Shown: piece after piece, positions 1 to 63,896 of the stretch | Numbering within the stretch: position 1 is the first letter of the stretch | How the letters are laid out: each line of letters begins with the position of its first letter | DNA from: an uncultured Pseudomonadales bacterium | GTDB taxonomy: Bacteria > Patescibacteriota > Microgenomatia > UBA1400 | Assembly: GCA_964589815.1 (NCBI GenBank) | Contig: CAZPUR010000002.1 | Span: 19,466-83,465, forward strand | Length of the DNA stretch: 64,000 nt | Reading direction: 5' to 3' | Position numbers and translations under genes: made by a program | The notes under the pieces: model-generated | Database searches by the model: none | What the model saw: only the letters and a program-made list of their open reading frames with translations | Told to the model about the DNA's origin: nothing

Positions 1-689
1 AGGGTAAAAGCTTGTTGTTTAAAGTTTTTAATCAGACGGTTAAAAGTACGGTCATTGAAACAGATTTGCCCCAGGATAAACCAGTTTCCTGGTTTATTAT
101 TCCTCCTCAGGAAAAATATGGTCAAGGCTATACTTTATTTTTTGACAATATTTCCATCGGCAGACCTGCCTCGCCGTCCGCCTCGTCTCTGACTCGTCGA
201 GACGGGAGTCAAGGCGGGCAAAAAACCATTAACCAACTAGATCGGGTAGAGGTTTACCCCATTCCTTACCACTTTCTGAAATCCATTAAATTAACTACCA
301 ATCAACTACTTAATACACGACCTAATCAACTATCAGTTAACGATGTTAAACATCCAAACCCCTCCTTTTACAAAATCCAACTAGACTCTACGCAATACAC
401 TCTACGCCCTACACCCTATTTAATATTATCCCAATCCTTTCACTCTGGTTGGCTGGCTTTTTATTTTCAAGGCCTTAAACCAGTGTTTTTAAAAGACCAC
501 GTTTTGGTCAACAATTGGCAAAACGGCTGGAATCTAAACAATGAAACAATGAAACAGTGGAACAATGAAGCAATTTATCTTCTCTTCTGGCCCCAATTCC
601 TGGAATACCTGGGTTTTATTTTCTTAGGAGTTTTTATTCTTTTTCTTTTCTTCCCTAGAAAAACACCTAGAAAAAAAACCAAAAAATAG
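1..689 (+). CDS. 3' portion of a large membrane protein gene that starts upstream of the window (family not recognised)
   Basis: Frame open from nt 3 to window edge; C-terminal hydrophobic helix GFIFLGVFILFLFF plus Lys-rich tail; in-frame GC-rich palindrome 161-219 and word repeats 386-419, 537-575. Confidence 0.45.
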   Translation, partial: GKSLLFKVFNQTVKSTVIETDLPQDKPVSWFIIPPQEKYGQGYTLFFDNISIGRPASPSASSLTRRDGSQGGQKTINQLDRVEVYPIPYHFLKSIKLTTNQLLNTRPNQLSVNDVKHPNPSFYKIQLDSTQYTLRPTPYLILSQSFHSGWLAFYFQGLKPVFLKDHVLVNNWQNGWNLNNETMKQWNNEAIYLLFWPQFLEYLGFIFLGVFILFLFFPRKTPRKKTKK

Positions 690-752
690 TTTTACTTCGG
701 TATATCAAACCAGAGTTTTTATTCCTCAAGCCAAATATGTTATAAATAACTT

Positions 753-1907
753 ATGGAGAAAAAGATAAGAAAAATCCACTTAATTTTCTCCTTCATTTTA
801 GGCCTGACCATTATTTTTGAATTGGTTTATTTATTTTGTCTCAAACCTTTTTATTTTCCTCTTGATTTTCCTCAACCCCAACCTCTACCTGTTGAAGAAC
901 AAATAATTGAAAAAAAGATTGCCAGCTTGAGCCTAGAAGAAAAAGTCGGTGCTTTGTTCATTGTTGGTTTTAATGGTTCCACTCTAACCGATGATACCAG
1001 AGATTTTATCAATCAACATCATTTCCGCCATTTTTTGCTTTTAGGCAGAAACATTAACAATAAAGAACAGTTAATCAGTTTAACCGCCGAACTGAAAAAT
1101 GCCACTTCGAGTGCCATTCCCAGCTTAATTACTATTGACCAGGAAGGCGGGCAAGTGGCCCGACTCAACTTTGAAGAGCTAGACAACACTTCTCAAGCAG
1201 CAATCACCAGCGTGCCTCAGGCTTATAAAATCGGCCGGGACAGAGGAGGGGTACTTAAGGACTTAGGCATTAATGTAAACTTTGCTCCGGTGGTAGAGGT
1301 AATTAGAGATGAAGACTCTTATTTGGCTCGATTAAATCGGGCCTTCCCGGGTGATGAAGATCAAGTCTTTAGATTTTCCCAAGCAATGATTAAAGGCTAT
1401 CAAGACTCAGCTATCATTGCTGTGGCTAAACACTTTCCCGGAGGCTTAGGCCGTAAAAAAGCTGATCCTCATCAGACCCTGCCCAGGTTAGAGGTTGGTT
1501 TTCAGGATTTGAATCAAGATTTATTGCCTTTCCAAGATCTAATTAAACAAGGTAGAATTTCTGCCCTTATGACCACCCACATTCTTTATTCCCAAATTGA
1601 TGAGAATAACCCGGTTACCACTTCAGAAAAATTCATTAGCGCCATTCTAAGGCAGGAATTAGGCTTTAAAGGGGTAATTATATCAGATGATTTGGTAATG
1701 AGAGGTTTGGGTTCTATTAATACCATAGAAGACTCGGCCATCGCCGCGTTTAACGCGGGCCATGACCTTTTAATTGTTTCCGGACCAACGGAGATTCAAG
1801 ACCGGGTTTACCAAAATTTGCTTCAGACAGTTAAACAAGGAGAAATAACAGAAGAGAGGCTGGACCAATCCCTTCGGCGCCTTCTGCGTCTGAGCAATGG
1901 GGAATAG
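753..1907 (+). CDS. nagZ: Glycoside hydrolase family 3 beta-N-acetylhexosaminidase (NagZ-like), membrane anchored
   Basis: GH3 N-domain motifs TIDQEGGQVARL, KHFPGGLGR, IISDDLVM; N-terminal hydrophobic anchor. Confidence 0.8.
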   Translation: MEKKIRKIHLIFSFILGLTIIFELVYLFCLKPFYFPLDFPQPQPLPVEEQIIEKKIASLSLEEKVGALFIVGFNGSTLTDDTRDFINQHHFRHFLLLGRNINNKEQLISLTAELKNATSSAIPSLITIDQEGGQVARLNFEELDNTSQAAITSVPQAYKIGRDRGGVLKDLGINVNFAPVVEVIRDEDSYLARLNRAFPGDEDQVFRFSQAMIKGYQDSAIIAVAKHFPGGLGRKKADPHQTLPRLEVGFQDLNQDLLPFQDLIKQGRISALMTTHILYSQIDENNPVTTSEKFISAILRQELGFKGVIISDDLVMRGLGSINTIEDSAIAAFNAGHDLLIVSGPTEIQDRVYQNLLQTVKQGEITEERLDQSLRRLLRLSNGE

Positions 1908-2042
1908 GGAGTAATGCTACTGGCTAACTAAACTTTTCCACAATTCCCAAAAAACTCTTAATAACTTTCTTTTTCTAGAGGTAATTACAATGTAGTATAT
2001 TTTATAGGCCTAGCTATTTTAGGTGTATTTTTTGCTATAGGC

Positions 2043-2071
2043 TTGACAGAAGAGAAAAGATATGCTAGATT
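2043..2071 (+). promoter_or_regulatory. Sigma70-type promoter with no annotated gene downstream
   Basis: TTGACA (2043-2048), 17-nt spacer, TAGATT (2066-2071). Confidence 0.4.
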
Positions 2072-2280
2072 AAAGGCGTAATTTGAAAAGATGAAGCGCC
2101 AGAATGAAAAGAGCATCGCTATCGCTGATCATCCGAGCTTAATAAAGATCAGAAAAACACGAATAGCAATGCCCTTTTATATAGGTCTGACTTAAGGACA
2201 GGAATAAATCAAGACCTAAAAAAATCAAAGCATAATTGTAGCTTTTTGTCAATAGAATATTAATTTTTTAGTCTTTGTAA

Positions 2281-4101: not shown

Positions 4102-5196
4102 ATGCAATTTTTAGATAACATATCAGATTTTTTTACTAACCTTCGTGAATATGTAGTTTTCCTCAAGGTCTACTTCACCCGTAAAATTTTCCGTTCTTTT
4201 TATCGTTTTGAAAAAGGCAAAAGCGTCTTAGTTGATGGCTTGAGCGTTAAAAGAGGGAAGTACGTTCGTCCCTTTTTACATAGCTCTATGATCGGTCTTT
4301 TTTTAATCGGTCTTTTAATGGCTCCTTTAATTAGATCTGCTTTGCCTGAGGCAAAATTTGAATTGGCTCAAAACTTTCAGGTTCTAGGCATAGAAGATTT
4401 AGATCAGCTGACCACCACCCAAATCTCAGTTAAACCCAGAGACAATGTGGTCACCTATAAAGTCCAAGAGGGTGATACTTTATCTTCAATTGCCTTAAAA
4501 TTCGGTGTTTCTGAAGAAACAATTATGTGGCAGAATGACCTAAAAAAAGATCCGGTTTTAAAAATCGGAGAGAAATTGGAGATTCCGCCGGTGACCGGCA
4601 TTGTCCACAAAGTCAAAAGGGGAGAGACGATTCACTCGATTGCCAAAAAATACCAAGTTGACCCTCAGCAGATTGTTAACTGGCCTTTTAACAGTTTTAT
4701 TAACGATGAAACTTTTGCTTTGGCCGTGGGTCAATTAGTGATTGTACCTGAAGGAATCCAACCCAAAGCTTCACCGCCGCCCAGCTATCTGGCTCAAAGA
4801 TACCGCCAAACGCCTGATGCGGGCGCAGTTTCTGCTACTGGTGATTTTGTTTGGCCTACTTCCGGAGGCATCACTCAATACTTTGTTTGGTACCATCCGG
4901 CGATTGATATTGCTAATAAATCGGCGCCGGCGATTTTAGCGGCTGACTCAGGCACGGTTACTTTAGTCAGATATGATAAATGGTCTTATGGTCACCACGT
5001 CATTATTGACCATGGTAATGGCTATACTACTTTATATGCTCATATGAGCAATATCTATGTTTCTGAGGGGCAAACGGTCAGTCGCGGCAATGCTATTGGT
5101 CAAATGGGTACCACCGGCCGTTCTTCAGGCATCCACCTTCATTTTGAAATCCGCCTCAACGGCGTCGCCCAAAATCCGTTAGCATATCTGAAATAA
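4102..5196 (+). CDS. LysM-domain M23 family metallopeptidase (peptidoglycan endopeptidase)
   Basis: Two LysM repeats (YKVQEGDTLSSIALKFGV, HKVKRGETIHSIAKKYQV); M23 motifs HHVIIDHGNGYTTLYAHMS and GIHLHFEI; N-terminal TM. Confidence 0.9.
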   Translation: MQFLDNISDFFTNLREYVVFLKVYFTRKIFRSFYRFEKGKSVLVDGLSVKRGKYVRPFLHSSMIGLFLIGLLMAPLIRSALPEAKFELAQNFQVLGIEDLDQLTTTQISVKPRDNVVTYKVQEGDTLSSIALKFGVSEETIMWQNDLKKDPVLKIGEKLEIPPVTGIVHKVKRGETIHSIAKKYQVDPQQIVNWPFNSFINDETFALAVGQLVIVPEGIQPKASPPPSYLAQRYRQTPDAGAVSATGDFVWPTSGGITQYFVWYHPAIDIANKSAPAILAADSGTVTLVRYDKWSYGHHVIIDHGNGYTTLYAHMSNIYVSEGQTVSRGNAIGQMGTTGRSSGIHLHFEIRLNGVAQNPLAYLK

Positions 5197-5327
5197 AAGC
5201 CACGTTTAAATCTGTGAGATTTATTACGGGGCCCAAAATCCGTTAGCATATCTGAAATAAAAGCCACGTTTAAATCTGTGAGATTTATTACGGGGCCCAG
5301 AATCCTTTGGCTTATTTAAAATAAAAG
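5167..5327 (+). repeat. 64-bp-period tandem repeat of the M23 gene 3' end (2 exact copies + 1 diverged partial copy)
   Basis: GCCCAAAATCCGTTAGCATATCTGAAATAA... starts at 5167 and again at 5231; third copy 5295-5324 encodes the same AQNPLAYLK-stop using different synonymous codons. Confidence 0.9.
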
Positions 5328-6543: not shown

Positions 6544-6750
6544 ATGAAAGATAAAGTAATTCAATGCATTGATTGTCAACAGAAGTTTCCGTGGGTGGTG
6601 GAAGAGCAGGAATTTTATCAAGAAAAAGGCCTCAAACCGCCAACCCGTTGTCCCATTTGCCGAGCGGCTTTCAAAGAGGCAAAAAAAGATAAGTTTCGGG
6701 GAAGAATCAAAATTTCTAATTATTCTAAAAAAATCCCAATTTCCCAATAA
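6544..6750 (+). CDS. Zinc-ribbon domain protein (CxxC...CxxC)
   Basis: MKDKVIQCIDCQQKFPWVVEEQEFYQEKGLKPPTRCPICR pattern typical of the 'probable zinc-ribbon' family; ATG at 6544 preferred over track start 6505. Confidence 0.65.
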   Translation: MKDKVIQCIDCQQKFPWVVEEQEFYQEKGLKPPTRCPICRAAFKEAKKDKFRGRIKISNYSKKIPISQ

Positions 6751-6771
6751 CCAAGAGATTACTTAATTTTT

Positions 6772-7123
6772 CTATAATATAGAGTTAAAAATCAAATTTA
6801 GTTCTTTAGCTTCCTGCCAAAGTTTTCTGGCTTTATCTTTAGATTCTGGAACCGCAATTCCTATCATTCTTAAGAAATGTTTACTCTCTCTGGATTCTTT
6901 TTTACAAATACCAATCTTATGTTTAAAATCCTTGCCTGATTCAGCATCATCGGCTTCACAATAGTTAGCTCCAATACTGGTTCCCGCCTTAACTAATTGA
7001 GTTATTAATGGAGTAGTAACGGCAGTTTTAGATAAGTTATTGCAAAACTTTATTATTTCTTCACCAAATTTAGCCGTTCTTTTTCCTCCAAATCATATAT
7101 TTTCTTTTTGGTGCTTTTGACAT
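6772..7123 (-). pseudogene. Four-helix-bundle protein (23S rRNA IVS protein family), reading frame interrupted in A-runs
   Basis: Minus-strand frame ending at TAG 6772-6774 reads TAKFGEEIIKFCNNL...GTSIGANYCEADDAESGKDFKHKIGICKKESRESKHFLRMI. The expected N-terminus (MSKAPKRK / KIYDLEEK) lies in two other frames joined at poly-A tracts near 7078-7110. Confidence 0.6.
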
Positions 7124-7147
7124 TATTTAGGTCAATTAGGTTAATTT

Positions 7148-9196
7148 CTAAGGTGTACTCGCCTTAGTCGCTTCTTCTCCCTCTTCCAAGACTTCGGGTT
7201 TAACGTCTTCCGGTAGCTTTACCTCTCCCAAACGGGCATTAGGACTAGGCAAAGGTTGAGGTTGGCTCAATTTCTCTCTTGCTTCTGTTTTCAATTGAGC
7301 GCTGCTAGTCGCTTGAGGAATGGTTTCCAGTTTAGCCTGAATTTCTTTTAATTCATCTTGAGTCTTTTGATAGTCAGGACTATCTGGTTCCACCAAATTA
7401 GCGGTTAACTGCAGATTATAAAAAGCATTCTGCCAGTCTTCTTTGGCTTTATAAGCTTCGGCCAAATTATAATAGCCATTGGCATAATCGGGCTTGAGAT
7501 TAACCGCTTGCTGGAATTGGGTTATGGCTCGGTCATAGTCTTTCAATCCATAAAATAAACCGCCGAACTCAACTCTTAAAAGCGGATTGGTTGGATCTTT
7601 TCTGACGGCCTCTAAATAAGTGGCCATGGCCCATTGATCCGCGTCTTGGACGACGTTAATAATATTACGGTATAAATTGGCCAGGTTAAGCCAATAACTG
7701 CTGATTTGAGGGTTTAAATTAACCGCGGTTTTGGCTTCTCTGATCGCTTGGGCAATCAATTGCCTGACACTTTCTTTATCCTGATCGGTCAGATTTTTAT
7801 TGGCGGTGATTGAATTGGCCAGAGCTAAGTTGGTTTGAGAATAGGTGACTCGATATCCGGGCGCGTAAGGATTTAGCATCAAGGCCTTAATTTGTAAATT
7901 ATAAGTTTCCGCCCCTTTGTTGGCCTGGGCGGCCAAAAGGCTTTTTCTAAATTGCCGGTCAGCCAGCCATATTCGCGTCTGCCAATAAAGTCCAAAAAAG
8001 GTCAAAATAAGCAAGAGACCGGCTAGACTCCAAGCTAGAGCCTGAGACTTCAGTTCATAACTAGAATTAGAAGCTGAACTAAGAGACATTTTACTAGCTT
8101 CAAGTAAAGCCAAGAGTAAAAAAGTGACGGTTAAGATCAAAACATTAGACGTTAAAAGTAGCTGGATCACAAAGCTGGCGGCCAAACAAATATAGATAAC
8201 TTTAGAGACTAAAGAACCTTTAAAGCCGCCTTTTTTCAGACTCTTAAGCAGAATTAAAAGATAAAAACCCAAACCGAGAATGCCTACAGTAGAGAGTAGG
8301 TGTAAATACTGATTGGAATTGGTGATGAATTTTACCGCCCAGAGACTGGTGTTGTTTAAACCTAAAGGTCTAAATTGATTAAAAGCGGCCAGAAAATTAC
8401 CTGGGCCAACGCCAAAAAGAGCGGTTCTGATGGTTTTTAAACCTTCAACGCTAATCTGCCAGCCAAAATTAGGCCAGAGATAAGTCAAGACGACTTCTTT
8501 ATTAATGAAAAGAGCCAGAATCACCACTAGACTTAAAACCTGCATCATTGAAGCCACAAACAAGAGGATTTTTTTCAGAGCGTCTTTAGTTTTAAAAGCC
8601 CAGTAAAAAGTGCCTGGCATCAGAATTAAAAGCAGTTGAGCGGTAATTAAAGGCGAACCAGTTGGCGTCCAGGCTTTATTTTCAAGCCACAAAGGTCCGG
8701 TTTTTGATAAAATGCCTAAAAAGGAAAAAAGGGTTAGCCAACTTAAGACCACGCCGGAGCTGATTAAAGCGGTCATAATTTGCAGGATCGGTTTTTTGCC
8801 TCGGCAATAGTTGACAATGAAAAAATATAAAAGGGCCAAAGCCAAAATTATGCCCGTGTCTTCTAATAAAGAAAGCGGTCTGTTCGGAGCCTGCAAAAAA
8901 GAGGAGAGCAAGAAGCTGGCCACCAAACCTAAAATGGGCCAGTTGAGGTCGGTTTTTAAAATTTTTAAATTTTGTTCAAAAAAAAGCTTGATCACTAAAA
9001 TTAAAAGCATTACTCCTAACAAAAGGTACAAAAAAGCGATCTTATTGATTTGATAAAACTCGCTGGTAAAAGGCAGGAAAAACAAAGGCAGGCCAAAAGC
9101 CAGAAGAGTAATAATCCAGGTGAAAATTTTCGCCTCTTTATTTAAAAAAGGCTTAAGGGTATTTTTAAAAACTGGTGATGGTTTAAATGTTTCCAC
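7148..9196 (-). CDS. O-antigen ligase/polymerase-like polytopic membrane protein with C-terminal TPR repeats
   Basis: About 12 hydrophobic segments, LFGVGPGNF motif of Wzy_C-type proteins, TPR-like repeats (YYNLAEAYKAKEDWQNA etc.). Confidence 0.75.
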   Translation of the reverse strand: METFKPSPVFKNTLKPFLNKEAKIFTWIITLLAFGLPLFFLPFTSEFYQINKIAFLYLLLGVMLLILVIKLFFEQNLKILKTDLNWPILGLVASFLLSSFLQAPNRPLSLLEDTGIILALALLYFFIVNYCRGKKPILQIMTALISSGVVLSWLTLFSFLGILSKTGPLWLENKAWTPTGSPLITAQLLLILMPGTFYWAFKTKDALKKILLFVASMMQVLSLVVILALFINKEVVLTYLWPNFGWQISVEGLKTIRTALFGVGPGNFLAAFNQFRPLGLNNTSLWAVKFITNSNQYLHLLSTVGILGLGFYLLILLKSLKKGGFKGSLVSKVIYICLAASFVIQLLLTSNVLILTVTFLLLALLEASKMSLSSASNSSYELKSQALAWSLAGLLLILTFFGLYWQTRIWLADRQFRKSLLAAQANKGAETYNLQIKALMLNPYAPGYRVTYSQTNLALANSITANKNLTDQDKESVRQLIAQAIREAKTAVNLNPQISSYWLNLANLYRNIINVVQDADQWAMATYLEAVRKDPTNPLLRVEFGGLFYGLKDYDRAITQFQQAVNLKPDYANGYYNLAEAYKAKEDWQNAFYNLQLTANLVEPDSPDYQKTQDELKEIQAKLETIPQATSSAQLKTEAREKLSQPQPLPSPNARLGEVKLPEDVKPEVLEEGEEATKASTP

Positions 9197-9204
9197 TGAT
9201 AGTA

Positions 9205-9316
9205 ATTAAAAGTTAAAAGTACAAAGTGTAAAGTTACAGTTAAAAGTTTTAAGTTTGATAATTAACTTTTAACTTTAAGTTGTAATTTTTAACTTTAAAC
9301 TTTAAATTTTTAATTT
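9205..9316. repeat. Long imperfect AT-rich palindrome built from AAGTTAAAAG/CTTTTAACTT words
   Basis: Left half AGTTAAAAGT-type words, right half their reverse complement, centre near 9262. Confidence 0.6.
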
Positions 9317-9517: not shown

Positions 9518-12500
9518 CTAATTAATAATCCACCAGTTGAACCCAATTGGCCTACTAATTGCCTTATCAAGTCCAATGGTAAAAAAGCCCTCCCTCCCGT
9601 CCTTTTTATTTTTAACAAATAAGACCTTATTACCGGTGTCTGATGTAGGAGTAATATATATTAAGCTATCTTTTGTTATATTTTGATTATATATTGCCAG
9701 TTCAGTTTCATTAGCTGGTAAGGCCGCTTGACCAGCAGTGGCATTAGTGGTAATTTCGGGGATTAAAGTACCAAAGCCAGCCGAAGGCGTCGCTTCAGCA
9801 GCGGCAATATTTAATTTCCTGAACATGGCTTGCCTCGATTCAACATCGTTGAAGCGGGCTGAACCCGAAGCATCAATACTGGCCATAAGATTGTTATTAG
9901 CATCTTCGATGCGTAATTTACTCCCCCGAGCTGAACTCGGGGTCGCGTTATCAGGTAGTTGATTAAGTTGAATGATTAAATCATCTTTTGGTTGAATCAG
10001 CTCGGCAAATAAACTCTTAGTTTTTAGCTCATTACTGTTTATTGTGCCGCTAACTTCTAAGTTGCCGTCAATAACCACATCTCCATTTTCATTAATCCTG
10101 AATTTACCGGCCATCATATTAATCCCACCCATACCAGAAGGCTGGAGAAAAAGGGTATCAGTGGTGCTGCCAATACTATTATCAGCAATAAACATATTAT
10201 TATTAACCGTTAAAGCGTCGGTTACTTGAAGATTGGTAATCACCGCTTGACCAATGACCGCTAAAAATTCATCCACAATCAAAGAATCAGTATCTATAGA
10301 TGAAATGTCTAAGTAATCATAGTTATTCATTGTTCCATTGTTCCATTGTTCCATTGTTGCTAATAAGGCTGAATATGAAGCAATTTCTTCTTCACTTAAT
10401 CCCGCCAAAAAATCGGAATCTTTCACCTCGGAGGTGAAATCTTCAGACACCTCCGAGGTGTTTTTGTCCGGGGTGGCCGTCTCATAATAATAATTATTAA
10501 TAGTATCGCCAGTTAAAGTAGCCACCTTATCTTCCAAACCCTCAATCTCATCCGCATAAAGTTTTTTAAAATGGCCGGTTCCAGCCGTCAATTCTCCACT
10601 GACACTGGCACTTCGGGTTTCTAAACCCTCGGTGTAAACTGACTTGGCTGCTAGTTCACCGGCTAATGTGGCATTACCATTTGAGTCAACCGCAAATAAA
10701 TCTTTTCCTTCTTTAGTTTGAACTTTGAACTTTGAACTTTGAACTTGACTTAATTGTAAAATTAAGTCCTTGTCTGCTATTGGTTTAAGCATTTTGGTTT
10801 CTACGCTTTGAGCGATAAGGTTTTCAGTCTCCACCAGAGGAGAAATAAGCTTATCGTTAATGGTTACATGGTTGAATTGTCCTATTGTTGCCACCACTTT
10901 GTCTGCCATTAAATCCTTGGTTTCTATCAACCCAGTTTTAACTTTGTTAAAAAGTCCTGAAAATATTCCTTCTAAGTTCTGGGTTCTCAGTTCTAAGTTC
11001 TGAATTATTCCTTGCTGTTCTTGAACCGCCTTAATTATCTTGGGAACAAATTTCAAAGGTTTGATAGAATACATATCTGCGTCAGGATTATAACTAACCA
11101 CGTCAGGAAAGATTTCTTTAACTTCCTGAGCAATAAAACCGGTTTGAAGGGCATTGTTTTGTTTAAATTTAAAATCCACCACTCTTAGTCTATTAATGTC
11201 TTCAAGGGTAGTACCGCTGGTAACAATGTTTTCTTTTAATCTTTCATCACTGGCTTGTTCTATTTCTAAAGTGCCGTCATCTAAAGTAATATAACCTTCA
11301 AGATCGCCATCGCCATCATAAAAAGTGATCATTCTATTATCTCCGGCGGCATCATCTGCGCCGGCTTGGATTTTAACCCCATATCTATCAACATTATTGC
11401 CATCATTAAAAAATTCTCCGGCCCAACCACTGGCCGCGTCTGTTTCTACATCTAACCTGGAATCTGGGGTGGTATCGCCAATCCCCACATTGCCTGAGAA
11501 ATAAGTATATCCGCTGGTGCCGCCAGAAATGGTGAGGTAAGCCGCTAAATCATTAGATATGCCTCCCCGAAGTACTGATCCATAATCAACATAAAACGTA
11601 CCTGAAGGTATATGTGTATAAGTAGTAGCATTTAAGCTAAGCACAGAGCTTCCGCCGGTCGTAATGGAAGGGCCACTACCAAAATATAGATTGTTTCCAC
11701 CGACGTTAATGTTTCCATTGACATCCAATTTTTGTCCCGGAGTCGTCGTCCCGATGCCGACGTTGCCATTGCTTCCAAAGAAAACTTTATCACCAGCGTA
11801 ACCACCGCCATCAATATAAAACCTTAATCCTAAAGGAGAATCATCACTTTGTAGTCTCCAATCAGAACCGCTTCCCGGATAATCTATGGCCAACTCAGCA
11901 TTAGTTCCAGATAAATTCAAAAGTGAACTTGGTGCTGTTGTTCCAATGCCAACGTTGCCGCCATTCATTATTACGTCCCCATCACTTTGAATTATCAAAC
12001 TATCGGTATCTGCGCCACTTTCAATTGTCAGGGGGTATTCTCGAGCATAGACTGAATCCGCAGTGCCACTTGAGGCTGTGGAAAAAGTAATGCCGCTGTC
12101 TGCCATCTCAATTATGGATGCTCCTCCATCCACCCTATATTTCCACCCCCCGTCATAGTAGGTATTATGCGTAATGCGAGAAAGTGTGTTGGAGTGTGCC
12201 CACAAACCAAAGGTCTGACCCACCGATAGTGTATAATCACCACCGTTTATTGCGGAATCAGTCCCTATGATGGCTCTTCCGTTGACCTGAAGTTTAGTGT
12301 TTGGCCCCGTCGTCCCGATCCCCACATTGCCGCCGGTTAACCAGTAACCACCAGAAAATCTGGCTCCGAAGACGTTTGTTGTCCCAACAGTGAAGTCTGC
12401 ATCGGTGGCATCAGTTAATGTAAAAGCTCCTTCAGCGCTGGCTATAGCGCGGCGGCCCGCGGCAAAGCTATAGTCACCGGAGGCGGTATTCTCTCTACCG

Positions 12501-52035: not shown

Positions 52036-52064
52036 CGTCCAGAGGACAACCATCCTCTGGATGG
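52036..52064. terminator. Hairpin element between convergent genes (possible bidirectional terminator)
   Basis: CGTCCAGAGGACAACCATCCTCTGGATGG, stem TCCAGAGGA/TCCTCTGGA; related to 24215-24242; T-run follows. Confidence 0.5.
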
Positions 52065-53853: not shown

Positions 53854-54005
53854 TAAGTCCGGTTGATATAACGCTAGCTATTGAAAAACTGCCCAATATG
53901 GTTAGTTTTTTATTAACTTACCTTTGAAGTAAGGAAAAATGCCTAGCCAAAAACCGATCAGATTTTTGAAGTTCAAAAGCCATGCAAATGCGCATGGCTT
54001 TTGTT
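53854..54005 (+). ncRNA. Candidate small transcript (about 150 nt) between an extended -10 promoter and an intrinsic terminator; function unknown
   Basis: TGaTATAAT at 53839-53847; terminator at 53975-54005; contains a 24-codon ORF (53939-54013, MPSQKPIRFLKFKSHANAHGFCWL) that runs through the terminator. Confidence 0.3.
53975..54005 (+). terminator. Intrinsic terminator
   Basis: AAAA-GCCATGC (53979-53985)-AAATGC-GCATGGC (53992-53998)-TTTTGTT. Confidence 0.65.
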
Positions 54006-54212
54006 GGTTATAGGGTTTAGTTTTTTTATTGTTTTTTTGAAACAATAAACAAAGTGAACCTTATTACAAAAAGGAACACTTTATTCTTTGGCAGACTTAA
54101 GTGAGCTTAAAAGCTAGTTCACCCTGAGCCTGTCGAAGGGCTCTTTGACATCGCAAACAAAAGATTTATTTTTCCGAGCCGGAACTTAGGGAGTTAGAAA
54201 AGCGCCTAAAAA

Positions 54213-54303
54213 CACCTCCGAGGTGAGGTTGCGCCTGCGGTGCACCTCGGAGGTGGAGGATAAAAATTTCCCTAGGTGTCTTGAGTATTTCACCTCCCAG
54301 GTG
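54213..54303. repeat. Three CACCTC[CG/CC][GA]AGGTG palindromes at the left edge of the GC-rich cassette
   Basis: 54213-54225, 54243-54255, 54291-54303. Confidence 0.85.
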
Positions 54304-54392
54304 GAATTTATTTATCTAGTTCTTTAGGTTTCGGTTCGGAAAAAAATAGTGGGCCTTAGCCCACAAAAAAATCCACACAAGGAGGTGGCAAA

Positions 54393-56069
54393 ATGGACGC
54401 GAAGAAGGCGTTCAAAACGGCCACCTTCTTCCTGGTGGTCGGGGTATTGGTGGGGGCAGTTCTTTGGACTCGCCCTGTCTTTGCACAGGAGTCAACATCG
54501 ATAAATGAGAAGATTGCCAGCGAAGCGCGGTTGCTCATCGGCACAGCACCCTACGCGCCCGATCCAAGTGACTGCGGCCAGAACCCATGTTCTGGCTACT
54601 ACGTCTGTACTGATGTAGTCGCAGTCGCCACGGAAAGGGCTGGGGTGCCGATCGCCGAGGATTCGTGCGCCTGCAGTTTGATGAGGCGCGCGGAATACCA
54701 GCGCCAGTACTTCATGGGCGATTCAGTCCGTGGAGGAAATGATGCGCTTCGACGCCACTACGAGGCTGAGGGTTCAGCCGCTCCACCGGCCGCAGGCAAC
54801 ATCTTGCTCTACTCTGCTCACGTAGCAGTAGTAGTGGATGTTCGATCTGCGGGGGAGGGAAGGTTGGAACTTTGGACTGTTGAGGCCAACGGTGGCTCAG
54901 CCAGGGTGAACATCAACTCCCGGAAGTATGAGCTGGAAAAGCTCGGAGAGGGTTGGTATTTCATTTCTGGTCGCAATCATGACTCTATCTTCGGGTGGGG
55001 TGTGATTGATGAAACAGAGCCATTGGCACCAAGCAGTTCAGCTTCGCGCTGGCCTTACCCAGTGGAGCAAGCCCCAAAATCAAAAGGCGAATGGGGATGG
55101 GTTGGGCCAGCAGTAGCTGGGTTGACCATCATTGCCTTAATCTTGTTTTTCTTTGCCCTGGTTCCTCCAGGGTCAAGAATGGCAGCAATCAAGTTCATGG
55201 CCAAAAAAGCCTGGAAAGGCTTTAAATGGACTATGAACAAGACTTTGGAGCTGTGGGGGAAGCTGATGATCCTTCTCGAACCATCTGAGGAGGAAAAAAG
55301 ACGCTTCTACTGGCTCCAACATGGCCGAGGTCGAGGCGGCTGCCACTATTACTTTGTAGGCGCTTTCTGGGGAGCAATTCTTTGCTCCTGCGTTTTGGTT
55401 TTGATGGTAATCAGGTTACTGGTTTTAGGTGGCATGCCGTTGGAGAACCTGGTTGGTGGTCGTCAGACCTGGGTTGGCCGGGCCGTTTCTCGGGTGAGTG
55501 AGATCGACCCGGAAAATGTGGCCTACGGTTTGATCCCTGCTGATGAACAGAAGAAGTGGGATCAGGCTTTGCTGGAAACGTCGGCCCTGCCGACATTCCC
55601 GATTACTTACTGGACAGGGAGTGAAGTGAGTTTCCACTGTCCGGAAAGAATCTGGAGCGCAGCTAAGGCTGCGGCCAGCAAACACGGTTGCGATCCGCTC
55701 TTGGTTGTGGCGATAGGCCACTCAGAGGGACCGAGTTACAACCAAAATGCCATCTCGCGGGCTGGGGCCAAAGGAACCTGGCAATTCATGCCAGGCACCT
55801 GGGATTTATATTGGCCCCCAGGCCCGAGTCAACCCGGCCGGGAAAATGATTCGGCAGGAGCTGATGCTGCTTGCCGGATGGAGCTAGAACTGGAGTTGGA
55901 AGAACAAACTTCGGAGCTAGCTTTTGCCAGGCGGTTTAACGGGGCTGATGAAGGTCGGTGTTGGAACTGCGCTGACACGGATGGAGGCCCTGAAGATCCG
56001 GCTGTTCGCCAGGCCAAGTACGCTTGGAAGCTCTGGCAGCAGCTTCTCGCAGAAACAGGAGGTGAGTAG
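54393..56069 (+). CDS. Bifunctional peptidoglycan hydrolase: N-terminal CHAP/NlpC-P60-like amidase, two TM helices, C-terminal SLT lytic transglycosylase
   Basis: Signal/anchor; CHAP-like triad context GYYVCTDVV ... GNILLYSAHVAVVVDV ... WTVEANGG; TMs VGPAVAGLTIIALILFFFALV and YYFVGAFWGAILCSCVLVLMVIRLLVLG; SLT motifs AIGHSEG...AGAKGTWQFMPGTW; AAGGAGG SD. Confidence 0.8.
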   Translation: MDAKKAFKTATFFLVVGVLVGAVLWTRPVFAQESTSINEKIASEARLLIGTAPYAPDPSDCGQNPCSGYYVCTDVVAVATERAGVPIAEDSCACSLMRRAEYQRQYFMGDSVRGGNDALRRHYEAEGSAAPPAAGNILLYSAHVAVVVDVRSAGEGRLELWTVEANGGSARVNINSRKYELEKLGEGWYFISGRNHDSIFGWGVIDETEPLAPSSSASRWPYPVEQAPKSKGEWGWVGPAVAGLTIIALILFFFALVPPGSRMAAIKFMAKKAWKGFKWTMNKTLELWGKLMILLEPSEEEKRRFYWLQHGRGRGGCHYYFVGAFWGAILCSCVLVLMVIRLLVLGGMPLENLVGGRQTWVGRAVSRVSEIDPENVAYGLIPADEQKKWDQALLETSALPTFPITYWTGSEVSFHCPERIWSAAKAAASKHGCDPLLVVAIGHSEGPSYNQNAISRAGAKGTWQFMPGTWDLYWPPGPSQPGRENDSAGADAACRMELELELEEQTSELAFARRFNGADEGRCWNCADTDGGPEDPAVRQAKYAWKLWQQLLAETGGE

Positions 56070-56129
56070 GGAAAAGTTTAGGTTAGTGGAAGACTTTTAA
56101 AATCAGGACATGAAACGGAGGCAAAAGAA

Positions 56130-57158
56130 ATGTTTCAGTGGATTATCATGATGTTGCCGTTTTTGTTGGCTCTGGTGGCCGGTGCTGCGGGCTTCTGGAT
56201 GCTCAAGAACGGTTTGGGAGCCAAGAACGCTCTCAAGGTAATCGGTGGCGGTATAGTCGGCGTCGTTGCCGTTGCCTTTTTAGGGATAAGACTATTGGAC
56301 TTTGCAATTGGGCAGTTTGAGAAAGACTTGCCTGAAAGCAAAACCATGGCCTACCTAGAGAAAGGACTGGCGACGGAGTTTGACTATGCGGCCTACAGCG
56401 AAACGGGTGAAGGTGTAGGCATTGGTCCGCCCTGGAGTCAGCCTGTTCAATCTGACGCCGGTGTGCCACCTGCCGTACCTGCTGCAACGCCCGTTGCTGG
56501 CGTACCTGCGGCCACACCAATTCCGGTTTATCCGGCACAGGTCGAAGCCGCGCCCGAGCTGCAAAAGGAGCTACTGCCCGAAGGACCGCAGCGAGTGCAG
56601 TGCCTGGTTGATGCCCTTCTGGGCGCCAGCATCGGCAATGCGCAGAGCGGCTCAACTACGTGGTTTCCGCGTGGGACGATCTGGAATCTGAGAGTGAAAC
56701 GTGGTGTCGGTTTTTTCTATAAGAACCGGCACTGGGTTTCGTCTCCGGCGTTGGGTATTACGCAGGAGATCCAGATTGGCTACGGCTTGGGCAGACAGCT
56801 CGACAAGGCCAGCTCTGATACGGACGGCATCTTTTACGGCACGGGGGAATGGCCTCCCTCTTGCTACGTTGCGGTGACATCGCCGCCACCGACTGTTGTG
56901 CTTCCGCCTGACACTGGCTCGAGCACTCCGCCCGTCGACACCGGCCCTTGCACCAATGCAGAGCTCCTCCCCGGAGAGGAAAGCCAATACTGGTTGAAAA
57001 ATACCAGCGATGGCTCCTTTACCTGGGTGGAAGGGGGCTTGCCAGAGGCAACCTTTCGGACCACAGACGGACGGCAGGTGTCTGTCTGGGGGTGGCTCTG
57101 TAGGACTGAGCTGCAGTACGGCGTTGACCCGACCTACGAAGTCTGGGTTTTGCCGTAA
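56130..57158 (+). CDS. Membrane protein (2 N-terminal TM helices, Pro/Ala-rich linker, Cys-containing C-terminal domain), unknown family
   Basis: GGAGG SD; hydrophobic N-terminus; PPAVPAATPVAGVPAATPIPVYP linker. Confidence 0.65.
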   Translation: MFQWIIMMLPFLLALVAGAAGFWMLKNGLGAKNALKVIGGGIVGVVAVAFLGIRLLDFAIGQFEKDLPESKTMAYLEKGLATEFDYAAYSETGEGVGIGPPWSQPVQSDAGVPPAVPAATPVAGVPAATPIPVYPAQVEAAPELQKELLPEGPQRVQCLVDALLGASIGNAQSGSTTWFPRGTIWNLRVKRGVGFFYKNRHWVSSPALGITQEIQIGYGLGRQLDKASSDTDGIFYGTGEWPPSCYVAVTSPPPTVVLPPDTGSSTPPVDTGPCTNAELLPGEESQYWLKNTSDGSFTWVEGGLPEATFRTTDGRQVSVWGWLCRTELQYGVDPTYEVWVLP

Positions 57159-57175
57159 GGCTAGGAGGCCAGAAG

Positions 57176-57256
57176 ATGGCCTACCTAGTCAGATCTCCAC
57201 CCGACCCGCCGATTCGGGCAAATCTGTTGTCAGTTACCTTACATATAAACAGGTAA
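57176..57256 (+). CDS. Possible 26-codon Pro-rich leader ORF (MAYLVRSPPDPPIRANLLSVTLHINR)
   Basis: AGGAGG (57163-57168) 7 nt upstream of ATG; ORF runs into the 5' arm and inner stem of the 57203-57297 hairpin. Confidence 0.3.
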   Translation: MAYLVRSPPDPPIRANLLSVTLHINR

Positions 57257-57297
57257 CTGTTCCAAGGCTGGACAGAGCAAGTTCGAATCGGCGGGTC
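57203..57297 (+). other. 95-nt nested hairpin element (ncRNA, attenuator or recombination site; unknown)
   Basis: Outer 13-bp perfect stem GACCCGCCGATTC (57203-57215)/GAATCGGCGGGTC (57285-57297); inner 9-bp stem CAGTTACCT (57231-57239)/AGGTAACTG (57251-57259). Confidence 0.7.
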
Positions 57298-57530
57298 AAC
57301 CGGAGGTTCTTTTGTTTGCGAGCAATTCTTCCGCATCTGGCGGAAGGCTGCACGCGGCATAGCTTAAAATCTTTTTTTCTCTCATGCTTGAGAGAAAGTT
57401 TATAAAAGGTTTTAGGTTTATGTTGTGTGCAGTATTTGGTTGTTGTCCGATGTGTATCGGGCCTGAAGAGCTTAAAAAAGCGAAACAACTTAAAGTCAGT
57501 TTATTATTAATATGTTTTGAAAGGAAAAAA

Positions 57531-58613
57531 ATGCCTAGATCAGAATTGCCAGGACTATTAGGCCAAACTCTTTTAGAGCAGGGGATAGAAGGAAAGAAGG
57601 AGACTTCTTCTATTAGTACTGAAGGGATTGAAGTAGGCAAACCAGTCGGCTTAGGTAATGTTTTTAGAGTAAATAAGGCAGAGAAGGCAGGGTTGGCTTT
57701 AACTACCACTAATAGTGAAACTGGGAGAAGGCAAGTAATTGCTCGTATTCCTCCGGGGACTCAGGGTAAGGTGAGTCGTAGAAATGAGACAGTTTATGCT
57801 CAGGTTGGCCCTATTTTTGCTCAGATCAGAACTGAAGCTGGAGCAAGACGAGTAAAAGAAGGAGAGAATTTAGTCAGAAGGAGACAAAAGGTTCAAAGAG
57901 GTCAATCTTTAGCTGATCAAGCCTTAATTGCTCAACAAGAGATTGAATCAGCCCGGATCTATCGCAAGGCAGCTGAGCAAGATCGGTCTGAACATTTCCA
58001 AGCGCAACAAGCGATGGCTGATTTACAGTTAACTCATTCACTTAGAGAGGGAAATGGAAAAGGCAAGGGACTTTTAAGATTATTAGGTGATGGCTTAACT
58101 GATGTAGCTGTAGCTGCTTTATCAGGTGAGCCTAGGGCTGGAGGCGAAACAGCTGTCCTTGATTTTAATAGAGGGAGTATGCAAGTTAATGCCCCTACGC
58201 GAAGATCCGGGCAAACTAATGTTTCAGTAGCAAAAATAGTTGATGGCACTTTTAGACCTGAGGTGACTCTTGATCCTTTGTCTCGAGCAGTTAATAGGGT
58301 TAGAGGTTTGCTTGGAAAAAAACCAGTGGCTGTTTTGGGTGTTGGTGTTATTCGCTGGCGTCATACTTTAAGTCAGGAAATAGTTGGGGGCGAAGTTCAC
58401 AAAGAGCCTTTAGACGTTTTTGCTCAGCTTAATCAAGGCATTGAAGCTTTAAGAGTACTTAGTAGAGAGTCTTTACTCATAGAAGGAGTGCCTACTTTTG
58501 CTGATTTAGGCTTAGATGGACCAGAATTAGAAGCCCAGTCTGGAACAGAACCACATGAACCTCAGACCAAAGAACAAATTAGAGCGTTATTAAGAAAAGG
58601 AGAACAAAAATAG
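57531..58613 (+). CDS. Orphan soluble protein (360 aa), first gene of the ten-gene operon
   Basis: GAAAGGAAAAAA before ATG 57531; ORF is open from 57384, alternative start 57420 would add MLCAVFGCCPMCIG...; coiled-coil-like central region. Confidence 0.6.
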   Translation: MPRSELPGLLGQTLLEQGIEGKKETSSISTEGIEVGKPVGLGNVFRVNKAEKAGLALTTTNSETGRRQVIARIPPGTQGKVSRRNETVYAQVGPIFAQIRTEAGARRVKEGENLVRRRQKVQRGQSLADQALIAQQEIESARIYRKAAEQDRSEHFQAQQAMADLQLTHSLREGNGKGKGLLRLLGDGLTDVAVAALSGEPRAGGETAVLDFNRGSMQVNAPTRRSGQTNVSVAKIVDGTFRPEVTLDPLSRAVNRVRGLLGKKPVAVLGVGVIRWRHTLSQEIVGGEVHKEPLDVFAQLNQGIEALRVLSRESLLIEGVPTFADLGLDGPELEAQSGTEPHEPQTKEQIRALLRKGEQK

Positions 58614-62108: not shown

Positions 62109-63413
62109 ATGAACTTTAAGCCTCAAATTAAAACTTTAAGCAATGGCCTGCGTTTAATTACCCTTAACTTACCTCAATCTCCATCAGTGACCGCTCTATT
62201 AATGGTTAAAGTTGGCTCCCGTTATGAAAAAGAAAAATTGGCAGGCATTTCCCATTTTTTAGAACATATGGTTTTCAAGGGCACTAAAAAATATCCCACC
62301 TCGTTTGACTTAACCTCAACCGTAGACGCCATTGGCGCCGAATTCAATGCTTTCACCACTAAAGAATACACTGGTTTTTATGTTAAGTCTGCGGTTCAAC
62401 ATCTTGATTTAGCCTTGGACGTTTTGTCCCAGTTGGTGTTTCAACCGCTCCTGCCGGAAAAAGAAATGCAAAAAGAAAAAGGGGTGATTATTGAAGAAAT
62501 CAATATGTATGAGGATAATCCTATGGTTAAAGTAGGCATAGATTTTGAGATACTTTTGTATCCTGATAGCCGTTTGGGCTGCCCGACCATTGGCTATAAA
62601 AAATCAGTTAAAGCCATGAAACGCAGCAACTTTTTAAATTATCTTGGCCAATATTACCGGCCCAAAAATATGATTTTAGGGATTGTGGGAGGAATGAAAA
62701 AAGTGCAAAGTGCAAACCTGCCTGCCGGCAAGGCAGGGTGCAAAGTGCAAAATTTTAATCTGAATAAAGGACCTACGATTGTGGATCGATTATTCGAACT
62801 TCAACCAGTTAAATTTATCCAGCAAAAGCCTGCCTTACAGTTTAAATATAAAAAAACTAACCAAACCCATTTTTGTTTAGGAGTTAGAGCCTTACCCCAC
62901 GGTCATAAAGACCGTTACGTGATGGCGGTTTTATCCACTATTTTAGGCGGCAATATGAGTTCCAGACTATTTATGGAAGTCAGAGAAAAAAGAGGTTTGG
63001 CTTATTATATCAGAAGTTCAATCAACACTTATTTTGATCATGGTTATTTTATGACTCAGGCAGGCACAGATGTTAATAAGGCGGGAGAGGCGATAAAAGT
63101 GATTTTAAATGAACTACGCAATACGCATTACTCCCTACGTTCTAGTGAATTAAAACGAGCCAAGGAATACCTTAAGGGGAAGTTGGCTTTGAGTTTGGAA
63201 GACTCCCAAGAAATTGCCAGTCTTTTGGTGGAAGACTTTTTATTGGAAGATAAAATTAGAACTCCTAAAGAGATTATTGAGGGAATAGAAAAGGTGAGCT
63301 TGAGTGATATTAAAAGAGTTGCCCGACAAATTTTTGTTAATCAAGGCCTGAATTTAGCCATCATCGGACCATATAAAGACGAAACTAGATTTGCAAAGAT
63401 ATTGAAAATATAG
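62109..63413 (+). CDS. M16 family zinc metallopeptidase (catalytic, HxxEH)
   Basis: GISHFLEHMVFKGT; leaderless-type promoter TGaTACAAT ends 6 nt before ATG; in-frame inserts 62701-62752 and about 63111-63140. Confidence 0.88.
   Translation: MNFKPQIKTLSNGLRLITLNLPQSPSVTALLMVKVGSRYEKEKLAGISHFLEHMVFKGTKKYPTSFDLTSTVDAIGAEFNAFTTKEYTGFYVKSAVQHLDLALDVLSQLVFQPLLPEKEMQKEKGVIIEEINMYEDNPMVKVGIDFEILLYPDSRLGCPTIGYKKSVKAMKRSNFLNYLGQYYRPKNMILGIVGGMKKVQSANLPAGKAGCKVQNFNLNKGPTIVDRLFELQPVKFIQQKPALQFKYKKTNQTHFCLGVRALPHGHKDRYVMAVLSTILGGNMSSRLFMEVREKRGLAYYIRSSINTYFDHGYFMTQAGTDVNKAGEAIKVILNELRNTHYSLRSSELKRAKEYLKGKLALSLEDSQEIASLLVEDFLLEDKIRTPKEIIEGIEKVSLSDIKRVARQIFVNQGLNLAIIGPYKDETRFAKILKI
62717..62737. repeat. 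GC-rich palindrome CCTGCCTGCCGGCAAGGCAGG flanked by AAGTGCA words, in frame in the M16 gene
   Basis: Flanks AAGTGCAAAGTGCAAA (62701-62716) and GTGCAAAGTGCAAAA (62738-62752); reads VQSANLPAGKAGCKVQ. Confidence 0.9.
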
Positions 63414-63452
63414 GGAGTATTGCGTATCGCGTAGGGTAAACCCTACACCCTA
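63411..63452. repeat. TAGGGAGTA / TGCGTAT / CCCTACACCCT element, left flank of the four-helix-bundle gene
   Basis: TAGGGAGTATTGCGTATCGCGTAGGGTAAACCCTACACCCTA. Confidence 0.85.
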
Positions 63453-63456
63453 ATTT

Positions 63457-63810
63457 ATGTATAAAAAACTAACCGTTTGGCAGCGTTCGATGCAGTTAAT
63501 CGTTGCCGTTTACCAATTAACTAGCAAGCTTCCTACTTCAGAACAATATGGCTTATCTTCACAAATGAGAAGAGCAGCTATTTCGATTCCTTCTAATATT
63601 GCTGAGGGGTATAGAAGGAAAAGTAGGAAAGACTATCTAAGATTTTTATCTATTGCTAATGGTTCTGCTTCTGAGTTAGAAACCCAGGTAGAGATAATTA
63701 AGGTCTTGCCTAAAATGAAAAACCTTGATACAGTAAAAGTAGAGAATTTACTAAACGAAGTTTTAAAAATGTTAAATGTAATGATTAGAAAATTAGGGAG
63801 TAGGGAGTAG
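63457..63810 (+). CDS. Four-helix-bundle protein (23S rRNA intervening-sequence protein family)
   Basis: LTVWQRSMQL...YGLSSQMRRAAISIPSNIAEGYRRKSRKDYLRFLSIANGSASELETQ. Confidence 0.9.
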   Translation: MYKKLTVWQRSMQLIVAVYQLTSKLPTSEQYGLSSQMRRAAISIPSNIAEGYRRKSRKDYLRFLSIANGSASELETQVEIIKVLPKMKNLDTVKVENLLNEVLKMLNVMIRKLGSRE

Positions 63811-63896
63811 CTTTATAGTGAGTAGGGAGTAATGCGTATTGCGTATTGCGTAGGAAGAGAAACCCTACACCCTACTAACTACTGACTACACCCTAG
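63795..63896. repeat. Same element family, right flank of the four-helix-bundle gene (direct orientation)
   Basis: ...GTAGGGAGTAATGCGTATTGCGTATTGCGTAGGAAGAGAAACCCTACACCCTAC... Confidence 0.85.

Follow-up and report, generated by a model that had tools for sequence, protein, structure and literature searches.

Short palindromes and tandemly repeated words occur throughout a 64,000 nucleotide (nt) stretch of contig CAZPUR010000002.1 from an uncultured bacterium (the whole stretch is referred to below as the window), where they lie in spacers, in an RNA leader and, in several instances, in frame within genes such as leuS and argH. The question raised by this locus is whether these repeats have been inserted and, if so, what kinds of elements they are and how the palindromes are related to the words that flank some of them. 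Comparisons of LeuRS, ArgH and a Wzy-like protein from the window with database relatives place their nearest named relatives among the Beckwith-, Gottesman- and Daviesbacteria (Microgenomates, Candidate Phyla Radiation [CPR]), and the closest LeuRS sequences are 71, 68 and 67% identical to that of the window.

Our analyses have identified two layers of repeats in the window, viz. arrays of 7- and 8-nt words that resemble short tandemly repeated repetitive (STRR) sequences, and small hairpin repeats that belong to separate families. The reading that we favor, to which we assign a probability of about 0.6, is that hairpin families resembling repetitive extragenic palindromic (REP) sequences have been copied in trans into the word arrays and into the loops of other hairpins. 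The six groups of motifs recorded in a preliminary description of the window are all present where they had been placed and are far above chance and, as was also reported there, the genic copies do not break the reading frame, the host open reading frames (ORFs) all being intact and the inserts being flanked by Pfam domains on both sides. A JGI contig (3300031551; L081) and a Logan contig (SRR9707468; L340) match the window with 100% identity along 12.4 kb and 4.5 kb, respectively, and, because these two independent assemblies match it fully, the repeats do not represent an assembly artefact.

In-frame insertions in conserved proteins

The proposal that the genic copies are lineage-specific in-frame insertions is borne out by alignments with orthologues and structures for LeuRS, ArgH, ArgRS, an M16 peptidase and the Wzy-like protein. 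The three element-bearing segments of LeuRS are gaps in most orthologues (17-sequence alignment) and represent insertions of approximately 13, 17 and 28 residues relative to the Thermus thermophilus enzyme (1h3n). ArgH has gained 4 residues (PPAG) that are missing from 27 orthologues, the M16 protein is 8 residues longer than PDB 3hdi at its insert, and the word tracts of ArgRS coincide with small indels in comparison with a 72% identical orthologue in a related locus, L083 (L and P numbers denote the loci and proteins compared). Three of the encoded peptides or peptide pairs, viz. PPAGG, KNTSEV/HLGG and HPEFISGS, are distributed among LeuRS, ArgH, ArgRS, M16 and Wzy. The Wzy-like gene harbors three in-frame composites on the minus strand (about 49063-49140, 49412-49547 and 50006-50136), each of the form (GTAnnnn)n, centre, (nnnnTAC)n, and the encoded REYCVLR...KSLRPTYYWLLT falls in loops that are variable in every orthologue; some of the orthologues contain other REP-like peptides there (VILSKAKDL, and DCFV...PRNDK in P0247). 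It had also been expected that the motifs would recur elsewhere, and the families are indeed seen in other genomes at non-homologous sites, both in the LeuRS of other Microgenomates and in IMG/VR loci.

The LeuRS sequences that were compared (P0001-P0120) range from 805 to 1074 amino acids (aa) in length, and their repeat-derived peptides cluster at around residues 250-310, 530-600, 665-750 and 800-890, four regions that look like permissive insertion hot spots. An AlphaFold model of LeuRS based on the 17-sequence alignment has a mean pLDDT of 57, which is too poor for placing the inserts; the insert segments are modeled as coil with pLDDT below 50, like much of the protein. In L339, a locus of a Microgenomates relative, fragments of an IS5-type transposase (DUF4096, DDE_Tnp_1; 6729-7524) lie about 2.5 kb from the LeuRS gene and are not linked to the small repeats.

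Family 3, a group of CGTC-tagged hairpins

The four 25-nt hairpins described previously at 30566, 38543, 38702 and 47397, where none is expected by chance, are referred to here as family 3. In leuS, two CGTC-tagged hairpins are arranged in tandem on the plus strand (30532-30590), a degenerate one at 30533-30560 and GTCATCCCGAATTCATTTCGGGATC at 30566-30590, and they jointly encode RHSGASAIESHRHPEFISGS; a single copy, its stem altered by compensated changes, is found at this site in the relative L082. A further CGTC-tagged copy (38542-38567, plus strand) lies in a T-box-like leader of argH, where alignment to the Rfam model shows it to be an insertion relative to the T-box consensus. A copy with an AGTC tag (38702-38726, plus strand) occupies the loop of the terminator hairpin of this leader (CCCCTTTG...CAAAGGGG, followed by T6), and another CGTC-tagged copy (47396-47421, plus strand) is found between a DUF2207 gene and the next gene. 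Thus, the tag is CGTC in four of the five copies in the window and AGTC in one, and a separate palindrome at 24215 on the minus strand has TGTC.

The stem of family 3 consists of 8 bp (ATCCYGAA/TTCRGGAT), and in 31-32 of 32 variants its columns 4-5 form A-T and T-A pairs with columns 23-24. This stem encloses a loop of 5 nt (YTYRT), and relatives with a 4-nt loop, e.g. GTCATTCCCGCGAAAGCGGGAATC, occur in the same loci. A search of IMG/VR with the pattern GTCRTYCYGAAYTYRTTTCRGGATC gave 76 matches in 59 loci with GC contents of 28-71%, compared with approximately 0.01 expected, and positions 8 and 20 form a Watson-Crick pair in 75 of these matches, though the pattern allowed all four combinations. 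Fully compensated stem variants include GCTGAA, TCCGAA, GCCGGG and CCCGGA, and the covariation extends to the unselected loop pair 12/15 (22 C-G, 8 T-A, 1 T-G and 1 other). Of 103 non-redundant copies taken from the fetched loci, 44 have T, 43 have C, 13 have A and 3 have G immediately ahead of GTC (84% T or C), and the tails nearly all begin with C (CTC 39, CCA 26, CTA 16); within the window, only the copy at 38543 has a CCA tail. Peptides derived from family 3 are present in four other LeuRS proteins (P0020, P0031, P0073 and P0077) in three reading frames and both orientations. Within the window, copies stand alone or in direct tandem (30533 with 30566) rather than as head-to-head dimers, and pairs in opposite orientation occur in L339, L087 and L136.

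On the basis of its sequence and anatomy, family 3 fits membership of the superfamily of CGTC-tagged REPs. Members of this superfamily have a CGTC or TGTC tag (with CCTC variants), an 8-9 bp stem with A/T at positions 1-2, a 4-5 nt loop and a CCA-consensus tail; they occur mostly as head-to-head dimers, include intragenic and in-palindrome copies, and have no dedicated transposase (PMC3733652). They are known from 5 phyla, mostly from alpha-Proteobacteria, and include the Rickettsia conorii elements RPE-4 and RPE-6 and the Neisseria dRS3 element (PMC3733652). The analogy to Rickettsia palindromic elements (RPEs) drawn in the preliminary description is therefore apt for this family. Family 3 shares with these REPs the tag, the 8-bp stem, the loop, a tail starting with C, in-frame genic copies, copies within palindromes and the lack of an associated transposase, as well as opposite-orientation dimers in the relative L339. 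It differs in its CPR host and in its additional occurrence in many IMG/VR contigs, in having a CCA tail in only about 25% of copies, and in the single or tandem arrangement of the window copies, head-to-head dimerism being a tendency rather than a requirement.

The leader that carries two of these insertions (38443-38750, upstream of argH-argG) had been called a T-box leader. This assignment is weak, the Rfam score being 24 bits (E = 0.002) where the gathering score is 93, but the conserved GGGTGGTACCG box and the terminator are present. For a CPR genome, control of arginine biosynthesis genes by a T-box would be unusual.

Family 1, a 16-nt palindrome

The 16-mer TCCGCCAGCTGGCGGA occurs, as reported, at 25170, 29772 and 40031, i.e. 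in three copies compared with 0.01 expected, and both genic copies encode PPAGG. The first copy (25150-25201, palindrome 25170-25185) lies in a spacer between divergent genes, with weak TTCTAnn words at its left and CTA repeated on either side. The leuS copy (29758-29804, plus strand) has the structure (AAATTGG)2, palindrome (29772-29787), TGG(AAATTGG)AAATTCC, and encodes KLEIGPPAGGWKLEI, which corresponds to the 13-aa insertion relative to the T. thermophilus LeuRS. The argH copy (40020-40059, plus strand) consists of ATTAAAAAATA, the palindrome (40031-40046) and TTAAAAATTAAAG, and lies within TTAAAAA words where the leuS copy lies within AAATTGG words. The same word-palindrome-word build recurs in another genome (L337), where both the LeuRS site and the word are different, two AAATTCA units and an A being followed by TCCGCCAGCTGGCGGA, CA and a further AAATTCA, the whole encoding NSKFNPPAGGQNSKLK. 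In L003, the 16-mer splits a CxxC knuckle (C-DPPAGG-C, a gain of 4 aa) with no array there. All four genic copies (4/4) use the PPAGG frame, and family 1 is represented in LeuRS P0078.

The 3 nt that flank the 16-mer are identical on both sides in three of the five copies (TGG, CAA and CTA); the argH flanks are ATA and TTA, and those in L003 are unrelated. Judged from these flanks, insertion of family 1 would have duplicated at most 3 nt. In IMG/VR loci of lower GC content, the 16-mer is located at the apex of longer hairpins, and it lies inside CGTC REPs in L145 and L159, with variants in the same position in L277. Nesting is further seen in REPs that lie in terminator loops, both in the window (38702) and in the IMG/VR loci L095 and L118, where the copies belong to family 3.

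Family 2, a Shine-Dalgarno-like hairpin

The motif CACCTCSGAGGTG is present where it had been noted, with exact copies at 10424, 10448, 30246, 54213 and 54243 and one mismatch at 54291 (0.02 expected), but these 13-mers are not units in themselves: the pairs 10424/10448 and 54213/54243 are each the two arms of one longer element. Family 2 is a hairpin of 37-60 nt with the form A5-CACCTCSGAG...variable apex...CTC(TG)CGAGGTG, for which folding energies of -24 to -35 kcal/mol (z-scores -4 to -8) are predicted at the RNA level. The element in a giant gene (10424-10465, minus strand) reads, in the sense direction, A5-CACCTCGGAGGTG, 11 nt, CACCTCCGAGGTG, and folds as a single 13-bp hairpin (-26 kcal/mol, z = -7.3). 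The leuS element (30241-30282, plus strand; A5-CACCTCGGAGGTG-TTACGAAGTAA-CTCCTGCGAGGTG) has a nested structure (z = -5.8), in which CACCTCGGAG pairs with CTCCTGCGAGGTG around a small internal hairpin, and it encodes KNTSEV... The third element (54208-54303, plus strand) is located upstream of a gene starting at 54393 and includes the arms at 54213 and 54243 and a half-copy at 54291.

The arms CACCTCC and GGAGGTG correspond to an anti-Shine-Dalgarno and a Shine-Dalgarno sequence, respectively, and the ribosome-binding site of the gene at 54393, located at 54381, is itself GGAGGTG. In other Microgenomates, the peptides KNTSEV and KHLGG are found at about a dozen positions of LeuRS, and one such protein (P0006) contains four family 2 peptides, with confirmation at the DNA level in L338. 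A search of IMG/VR with family 2 gave 2 matches, at or below chance. No Rfam family was assigned to any of the hairpins, literature searches with the motif sequences as strings returned nothing relevant, and families 1 and 2 are apparently undescribed small families.

The ORF that carries the first of these elements (9518-18517, minus strand) encodes a protein of 2999 aa with an N-terminal phage-integrase SAM-like domain and a Peptidase_S74 (endosialidase chaperone) domain, and contains the internal repeat families D4, D7 and D9 and at least three period-7/8 arrays in addition to the family 2 element.

Family 4 and other palindromes

The palindrome CCTGCCTGCCGGCAAGGCAGG at 62717 lies inside an array of AAAGTGC words in an M16 gene, in agreement with the preliminary description. 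The complete element (62700-62752, plus strand) reads (AAAGTGC)2AAA, the 21-nt palindrome (62717-62737) and GTGC(AAAGTGC)AAAA, and since 21 nt is 3 x 7, the phase of the array is unbroken across it. A perfect palindrome of 30 nt (24214-24243, within 24186-24283, minus strand) bears the TGTC tag mentioned above and has inverted AACAATGR-type arrays on either side. A related hairpin, TCCAGAGGA...TCCTCTGGA (52038-52061, minus strand), lies just downstream of a second M16 gene and abuts a heptamer array. The IMG/VR matches to family 4 and to the TCCAGAGGA hairpin are GC-rich or unrelated and look like chance matches. A repeat of about 45 nt is shared between the giant gene (9880-9995) and a spacer (20978-21093); its GC-rich stems differ fully between the two places but are compensated (CCCCGAG/CTCGGGG versus GTCCCGAC/GTCGGGAC) and are followed by a conserved TCGCGTTATYARGTAGTTRATTA.

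Word arrays and their priority over the palindromes

When exact tandem runs of 2.5 or more units are counted, the window shows an excess at periods 7 and 8 only, with 6 observed at period 7 compared with 0.05 in dinucleotide shuffles, and 7 at period 8 compared with none. Tandem Repeats Finder (TRF) recognizes 32 separate period-7/8 arrays, which make up 1.4% of the window and of which 17 lie within ORFs. The 6 exact period-7 arrays in the 64 kb of the window may be compared with 8 in 70 kb from five Microgenomates relatives, 5 in 151 kb around the LeuRS genes of other CPR bacteria and 1 in 472 kb around those of non-CPR bacteria, so that the density of heptamer arrays in this clade is approximately 50-100 times that around the same gene in non-CPR bacteria. 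Among these four sets, period-8 arrays were found only in the window.

The order in which arrays and palindromes arose can be read from two LeuRS sites. At the first, the array is missing from L083, is present without interruption as (AGAAATT)5 in L082, the closest relative, and is represented in the window by (AAATTGG)2, the family 1 palindrome and (AAATTGG)2. At the second, L082 and L083 keep (AAAAATT)5 where the window has the family 2 element within array remnants. Because the relatives keep uninterrupted arrays where the window has elements, the arrays are older than the palindromes, and because the arrays came first, the bracketing words are not duplications generated by insertion; the earlier suggestion that they are target-site or templated duplications is thus contradicted.

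The association between hairpins and arrays is real but partial, 4 of 18 hairpin elements abutting a TRF-scored period-7/8 array compared with 3.5% expected. Bracketing by the same word on both sides, which had been described in general terms, holds for families 1 and 4 and for the palindrome at 24214 but not for families 2 and 3. As the latter two are not array-associated, the idea of one word-palindrome-word architecture common to all families does not stand.

Comparison with known repeat systems

The preliminary description also knew of no earlier account of this kind of organization, but over-representation of heptameric repeats, including inverted pairs, has been published for Nostoc, Calothrix and Xanthomonas (PMC4692102). 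The window arrays have in common with STRR sequences their dispersal as 7-nt arrays of the same word, the inverted pairs and an excess specific to certain periods. They differ in that their words are AT-rich, a period-8 family exists as well, and about half of the arrays are in ORFs, STRR sequences being mainly intergenic.

For the hairpins, besides the CGTC REPs, the closest parallel in behavior is provided by the small dispersed repeats (SDRs) of the Nostocaceae, which, in work by Elhai et al. in 2008, were reportedly small palindromes situated in heptamer arrays and nested within one another. SDR5 inserts in the highly iterated palindrome HIP1, and SDRs have not been found outside the Nostocaceae (PMC5861425). 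The window elements resemble SDRs in behavior only, viz. in the heptamer arrays that surround families 1 and 4, in nesting, in compensatory changes of the hairpins and in the lack of an encoded enzyme. SDR elements are 21-27 nt long and differ from the window families in sequence and phylum; further differences are that many window copies are in frame in essential genes and that family 1 has a possible 3-nt duplication. Because their host is a CPR bacterium, we do not file the window elements as SDR members.

Elements of the RPE-1 type measure approximately 100-150 bp and lie in frame in unrelated housekeeping genes (PMC10969869); they share with the window elements the addition of palindrome-encoded peptides in frame, but are 5-10 times longer and encode a conserved peptide module, in comparison with 16-60 nt here. 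REPs with a GTAG tag and their associated tyrosine transposases (RAYTs) are not represented, there being no GTAG tag in the window and no Y1/RAYT protein among the Pfam matches of its proteins. Family 1 could be likened to two 8-nt terminal inverted repeats of a miniature inverted-repeat transposable element (MITE) placed back to back, with a 3-nt duplication in three of the five copies; however, a search for a parent insertion sequence found none, MITEs are far longer than 16 nt, and the duplication is inconsistent.

Proposed mechanism and alternative explanations

In the two-layer reading, the 7- and 8-nt word arrays, like the STRR sequences of cyanobacteria, would probably be made and resized by replication slippage, whereas the hairpins would constitute several independent families of REP-like, non-autonomous elements. 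A trans-acting activity encoded outside the window would copy these hairpins into DNA that readily becomes single-stranded or extrudes, viz. AT-rich word arrays and the loops of terminators and other hairpins. Within genes, purifying selection would leave those copies that keep the frame, contain no stop codon and fall in tolerant surface loops, where they may be largely neutral; survival of such tolerated copies would explain why the genic copies appear as short lineage-specific peptides such as PPAGG, KNTSEV/HLGG and HPEFISGS.

Several observations weigh against this reading. No transposase, RAYT or other HUH enzyme is recognized by Pfam searches of the window proteins. Nor do Y1 transposases lie close to family 3 copies, as an IS608 TnpA query matched no more than 2 of 341 loci, neither of which has family 3, though the query sequence was approximate, which limits the sensitivity of the search; no enzyme is known for the CGTC REPs either (PMC3733652). 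Only three of the five family 1 copies show the 3-nt flanking duplication, and no larger element with family 1 half-sites as its termini, i.e. half-sites flanking an ORF, was found. In several TAC- and AACAATGR-word tracts, native residues have been replaced while the overall length has hardly changed, which simple insertion fails to explain; one TAC tract of ArgRS replaces residues with zero net gain relative to the L083 orthologue. Sense orientation is shared by every family 2 copy of the window and by nearly every family 3 copy, a bias that might reflect a role at the RNA level instead of neutrality. Lastly, because the only other assemblies (L081 and L340) are 100% identical to the window, with no presence/absence polymorphism among them, recent mobility is inferred from phylogenetic distribution only.

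In an alternative reading, the hairpins would be not selfish insertions but functional cis-elements kept by selection (RNA stabilizers, terminators, translation control elements or protein-binding palindromes), the genic copies being by-products or regulators of translation and ribosome pausing. In addition to the Shine-Dalgarno complementarity of the family 2 arms and the GGAGGTG preceding the gene at 54393, 7 of 7 family 2 copies are sense-oriented behind an A5 tract, the six family 3-type copies counted in the window are all sense, CGTC REPs lie in the T-box-like leader and in its terminator loop, and many REPs are viewed as RNA elements (PMC3733652). We nevertheless consider this explanation unlikely, since in one protein family the same elements are found in frame at numerous non-homologous positions and close orthologues lack them, the orientation relative to ORFs in IMG/VR loci is 17 sense to 8 antisense, and copy numbers and sites vary between relatives that share gene order. 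Somewhat less likely again is local generation of all the repeats, with slippage making the arrays and template switching (snap-back synthesis) making the palindromes, without transfer between loci. The period-specific excess of arrays fits the polymerase slippage hypothesis quoted in PMC4692102, some word tracts replace rather than add sequence, and the covariation that reaches the pair closing a 2-nt loop is more easily explained by arm-copying than by stability. This process does not account for identical 16-mers at three loci with different flanks and in other genomes as well, for an identical 25-mer in contigs with GC contents of 28-71%, or for the dispersal of the octamer and TAC words, each to about nine loci.

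DNA uptake sequences (DUS) and uptake signal sequences (USS) have a density of about one per kb and lie on both strands, and pairs of DUS form terminators in Neisseria. The families of the window might accordingly be regarded as uptake signals, or as over-represented motifs linked to methylation or restriction in the manner of HIP1, kept by biased uptake or repair, and it is true that the window encodes ComEA and ComEC and that family 1 contains CAGCTG. With 3-6 copies per family in 64 kb, which is below uptake-signal density, several unrelated families side by side, and syntenic relatives that have the same competence genes without any of the families, this origin appears very improbable. An assembly or chimeric artefact, which the metagenomic source could suggest, is more remote than any of these and can practically be dismissed, because the ORFs stay open, the relatives show homologous arrays and elements, and the two further assemblies are identical to the window.

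A wider proposal, which goes beyond the two-layer reading and which we consider doubtful, is that the genomes of Microgenomates CPR bacteria are home to a community, not described so far, of nested palindromic mobile elements of ultra-small size and to slippage-prone 7-/8-nt arrays. The arrays would serve as landing pads and might also act as frame buffers, and the two layers jointly would be a main source of length variation in the surface loops of essential CPR proteins. If this were true, few known transposable elements would be as small as family 1, with its 16 nt and 3-bp duplication, and the enzyme moving CGTC-type REPs could be tracked in these genomes, where few candidate genes would make the mobilizing activity easier to find. 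If the pattern were general, it would explain the length variation of CPR housekeeping proteins, and the odd short peptides in CPR proteins would be repeat-derived, a caution for annotators. The inserts also provide natural examples of insertion-tolerant loops in aminoacyl-tRNA synthetases, and the families extend CGTC-type REPs and SDR/STRR-like behavior to a phylum with tiny genomes, the essential genes of this CPR bacterium bearing a striking load of them.

Distribution of the word families

The AACAATGR arrays noted earlier are confirmed at all of the sites listed, with 34 double-unit matches in the window compared with 3.8 expected. One is within an ORF (536-574, plus strand), others are located at 10328-10358, 19853-19907, 20287-20316, 42469-42506, 43868-43897 and 45418-45448, and further arrays were found at 24189-24282. 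The TAC-word tracts, also noted earlier, correspond to the repeat families D2, D3, D6 and D8, and include two GTA/TAC-heptamer composites (63413-63455 and 63794-63896, plus strand) as well as tracts at 385-418, 43672-43707, 46108-46148 and 63102-63137. TTAAAAG heptamer arrays form an inverted pair in a spacer (9204-9308; 45-nt arms, 78% complementary), and the same plan of array, centre and reverse-complement array is followed at 24186-24283, at the three Wzy-like sites and at 63413-63896. A metagenome scan with (AACAATGR)3 yielded at least 119 mixed loci with GC contents of 0.20-0.68; none of them is from the source sample and none contains exact copies of families 1-3, variants of which are present in L277 and L285 only.

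Two genes for putative four-helix-bundle proteins are flanked by arrays on both sides, the first (19912-20307, minus strand) by AACAATGR arrays and the second (63457-63807, plus strand) by the two GTA/TAC heptamer composites. The first matches PF05635 (23S_rRNA_IVP, the fold family of the Avd proteins of diversity-generating retroelements), and the second was identified solely by its phmmer match to the first (E = 1.8e-5). Neither the first gene nor its arrays are present in the syntenic PaaX-to-PBP region of L083, and arrays linked to four-helix-bundle genes were looked for in other loci but none were found. The arrangement in the window suggests that these genes are small cassettes that either land in arrays or carry them.

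Other features of the window

Five small called genes (62-74 aa, without Pfam matches) at 25960-27340, corresponding to 600-1986 of L081, lie between an SNase gene and DAGK and are missing from the syntenic regions of L082, L083 and L084. The GC content is approximately 0.51-0.52 in the blocks 54000-58000 and 12000-14000, in comparison with a window average of 0.40. The former block, downstream of the family 2 cluster, contains ORFs without a Pfam match and may be foreign DNA. A 64-nt unit is repeated in tandem at 5167-5327 (2.5 copies, 93% matches by TRF, copies 1 and 2 identical), beginning within the 3' end of an M23/LysM peptidase gene (4102-5196).

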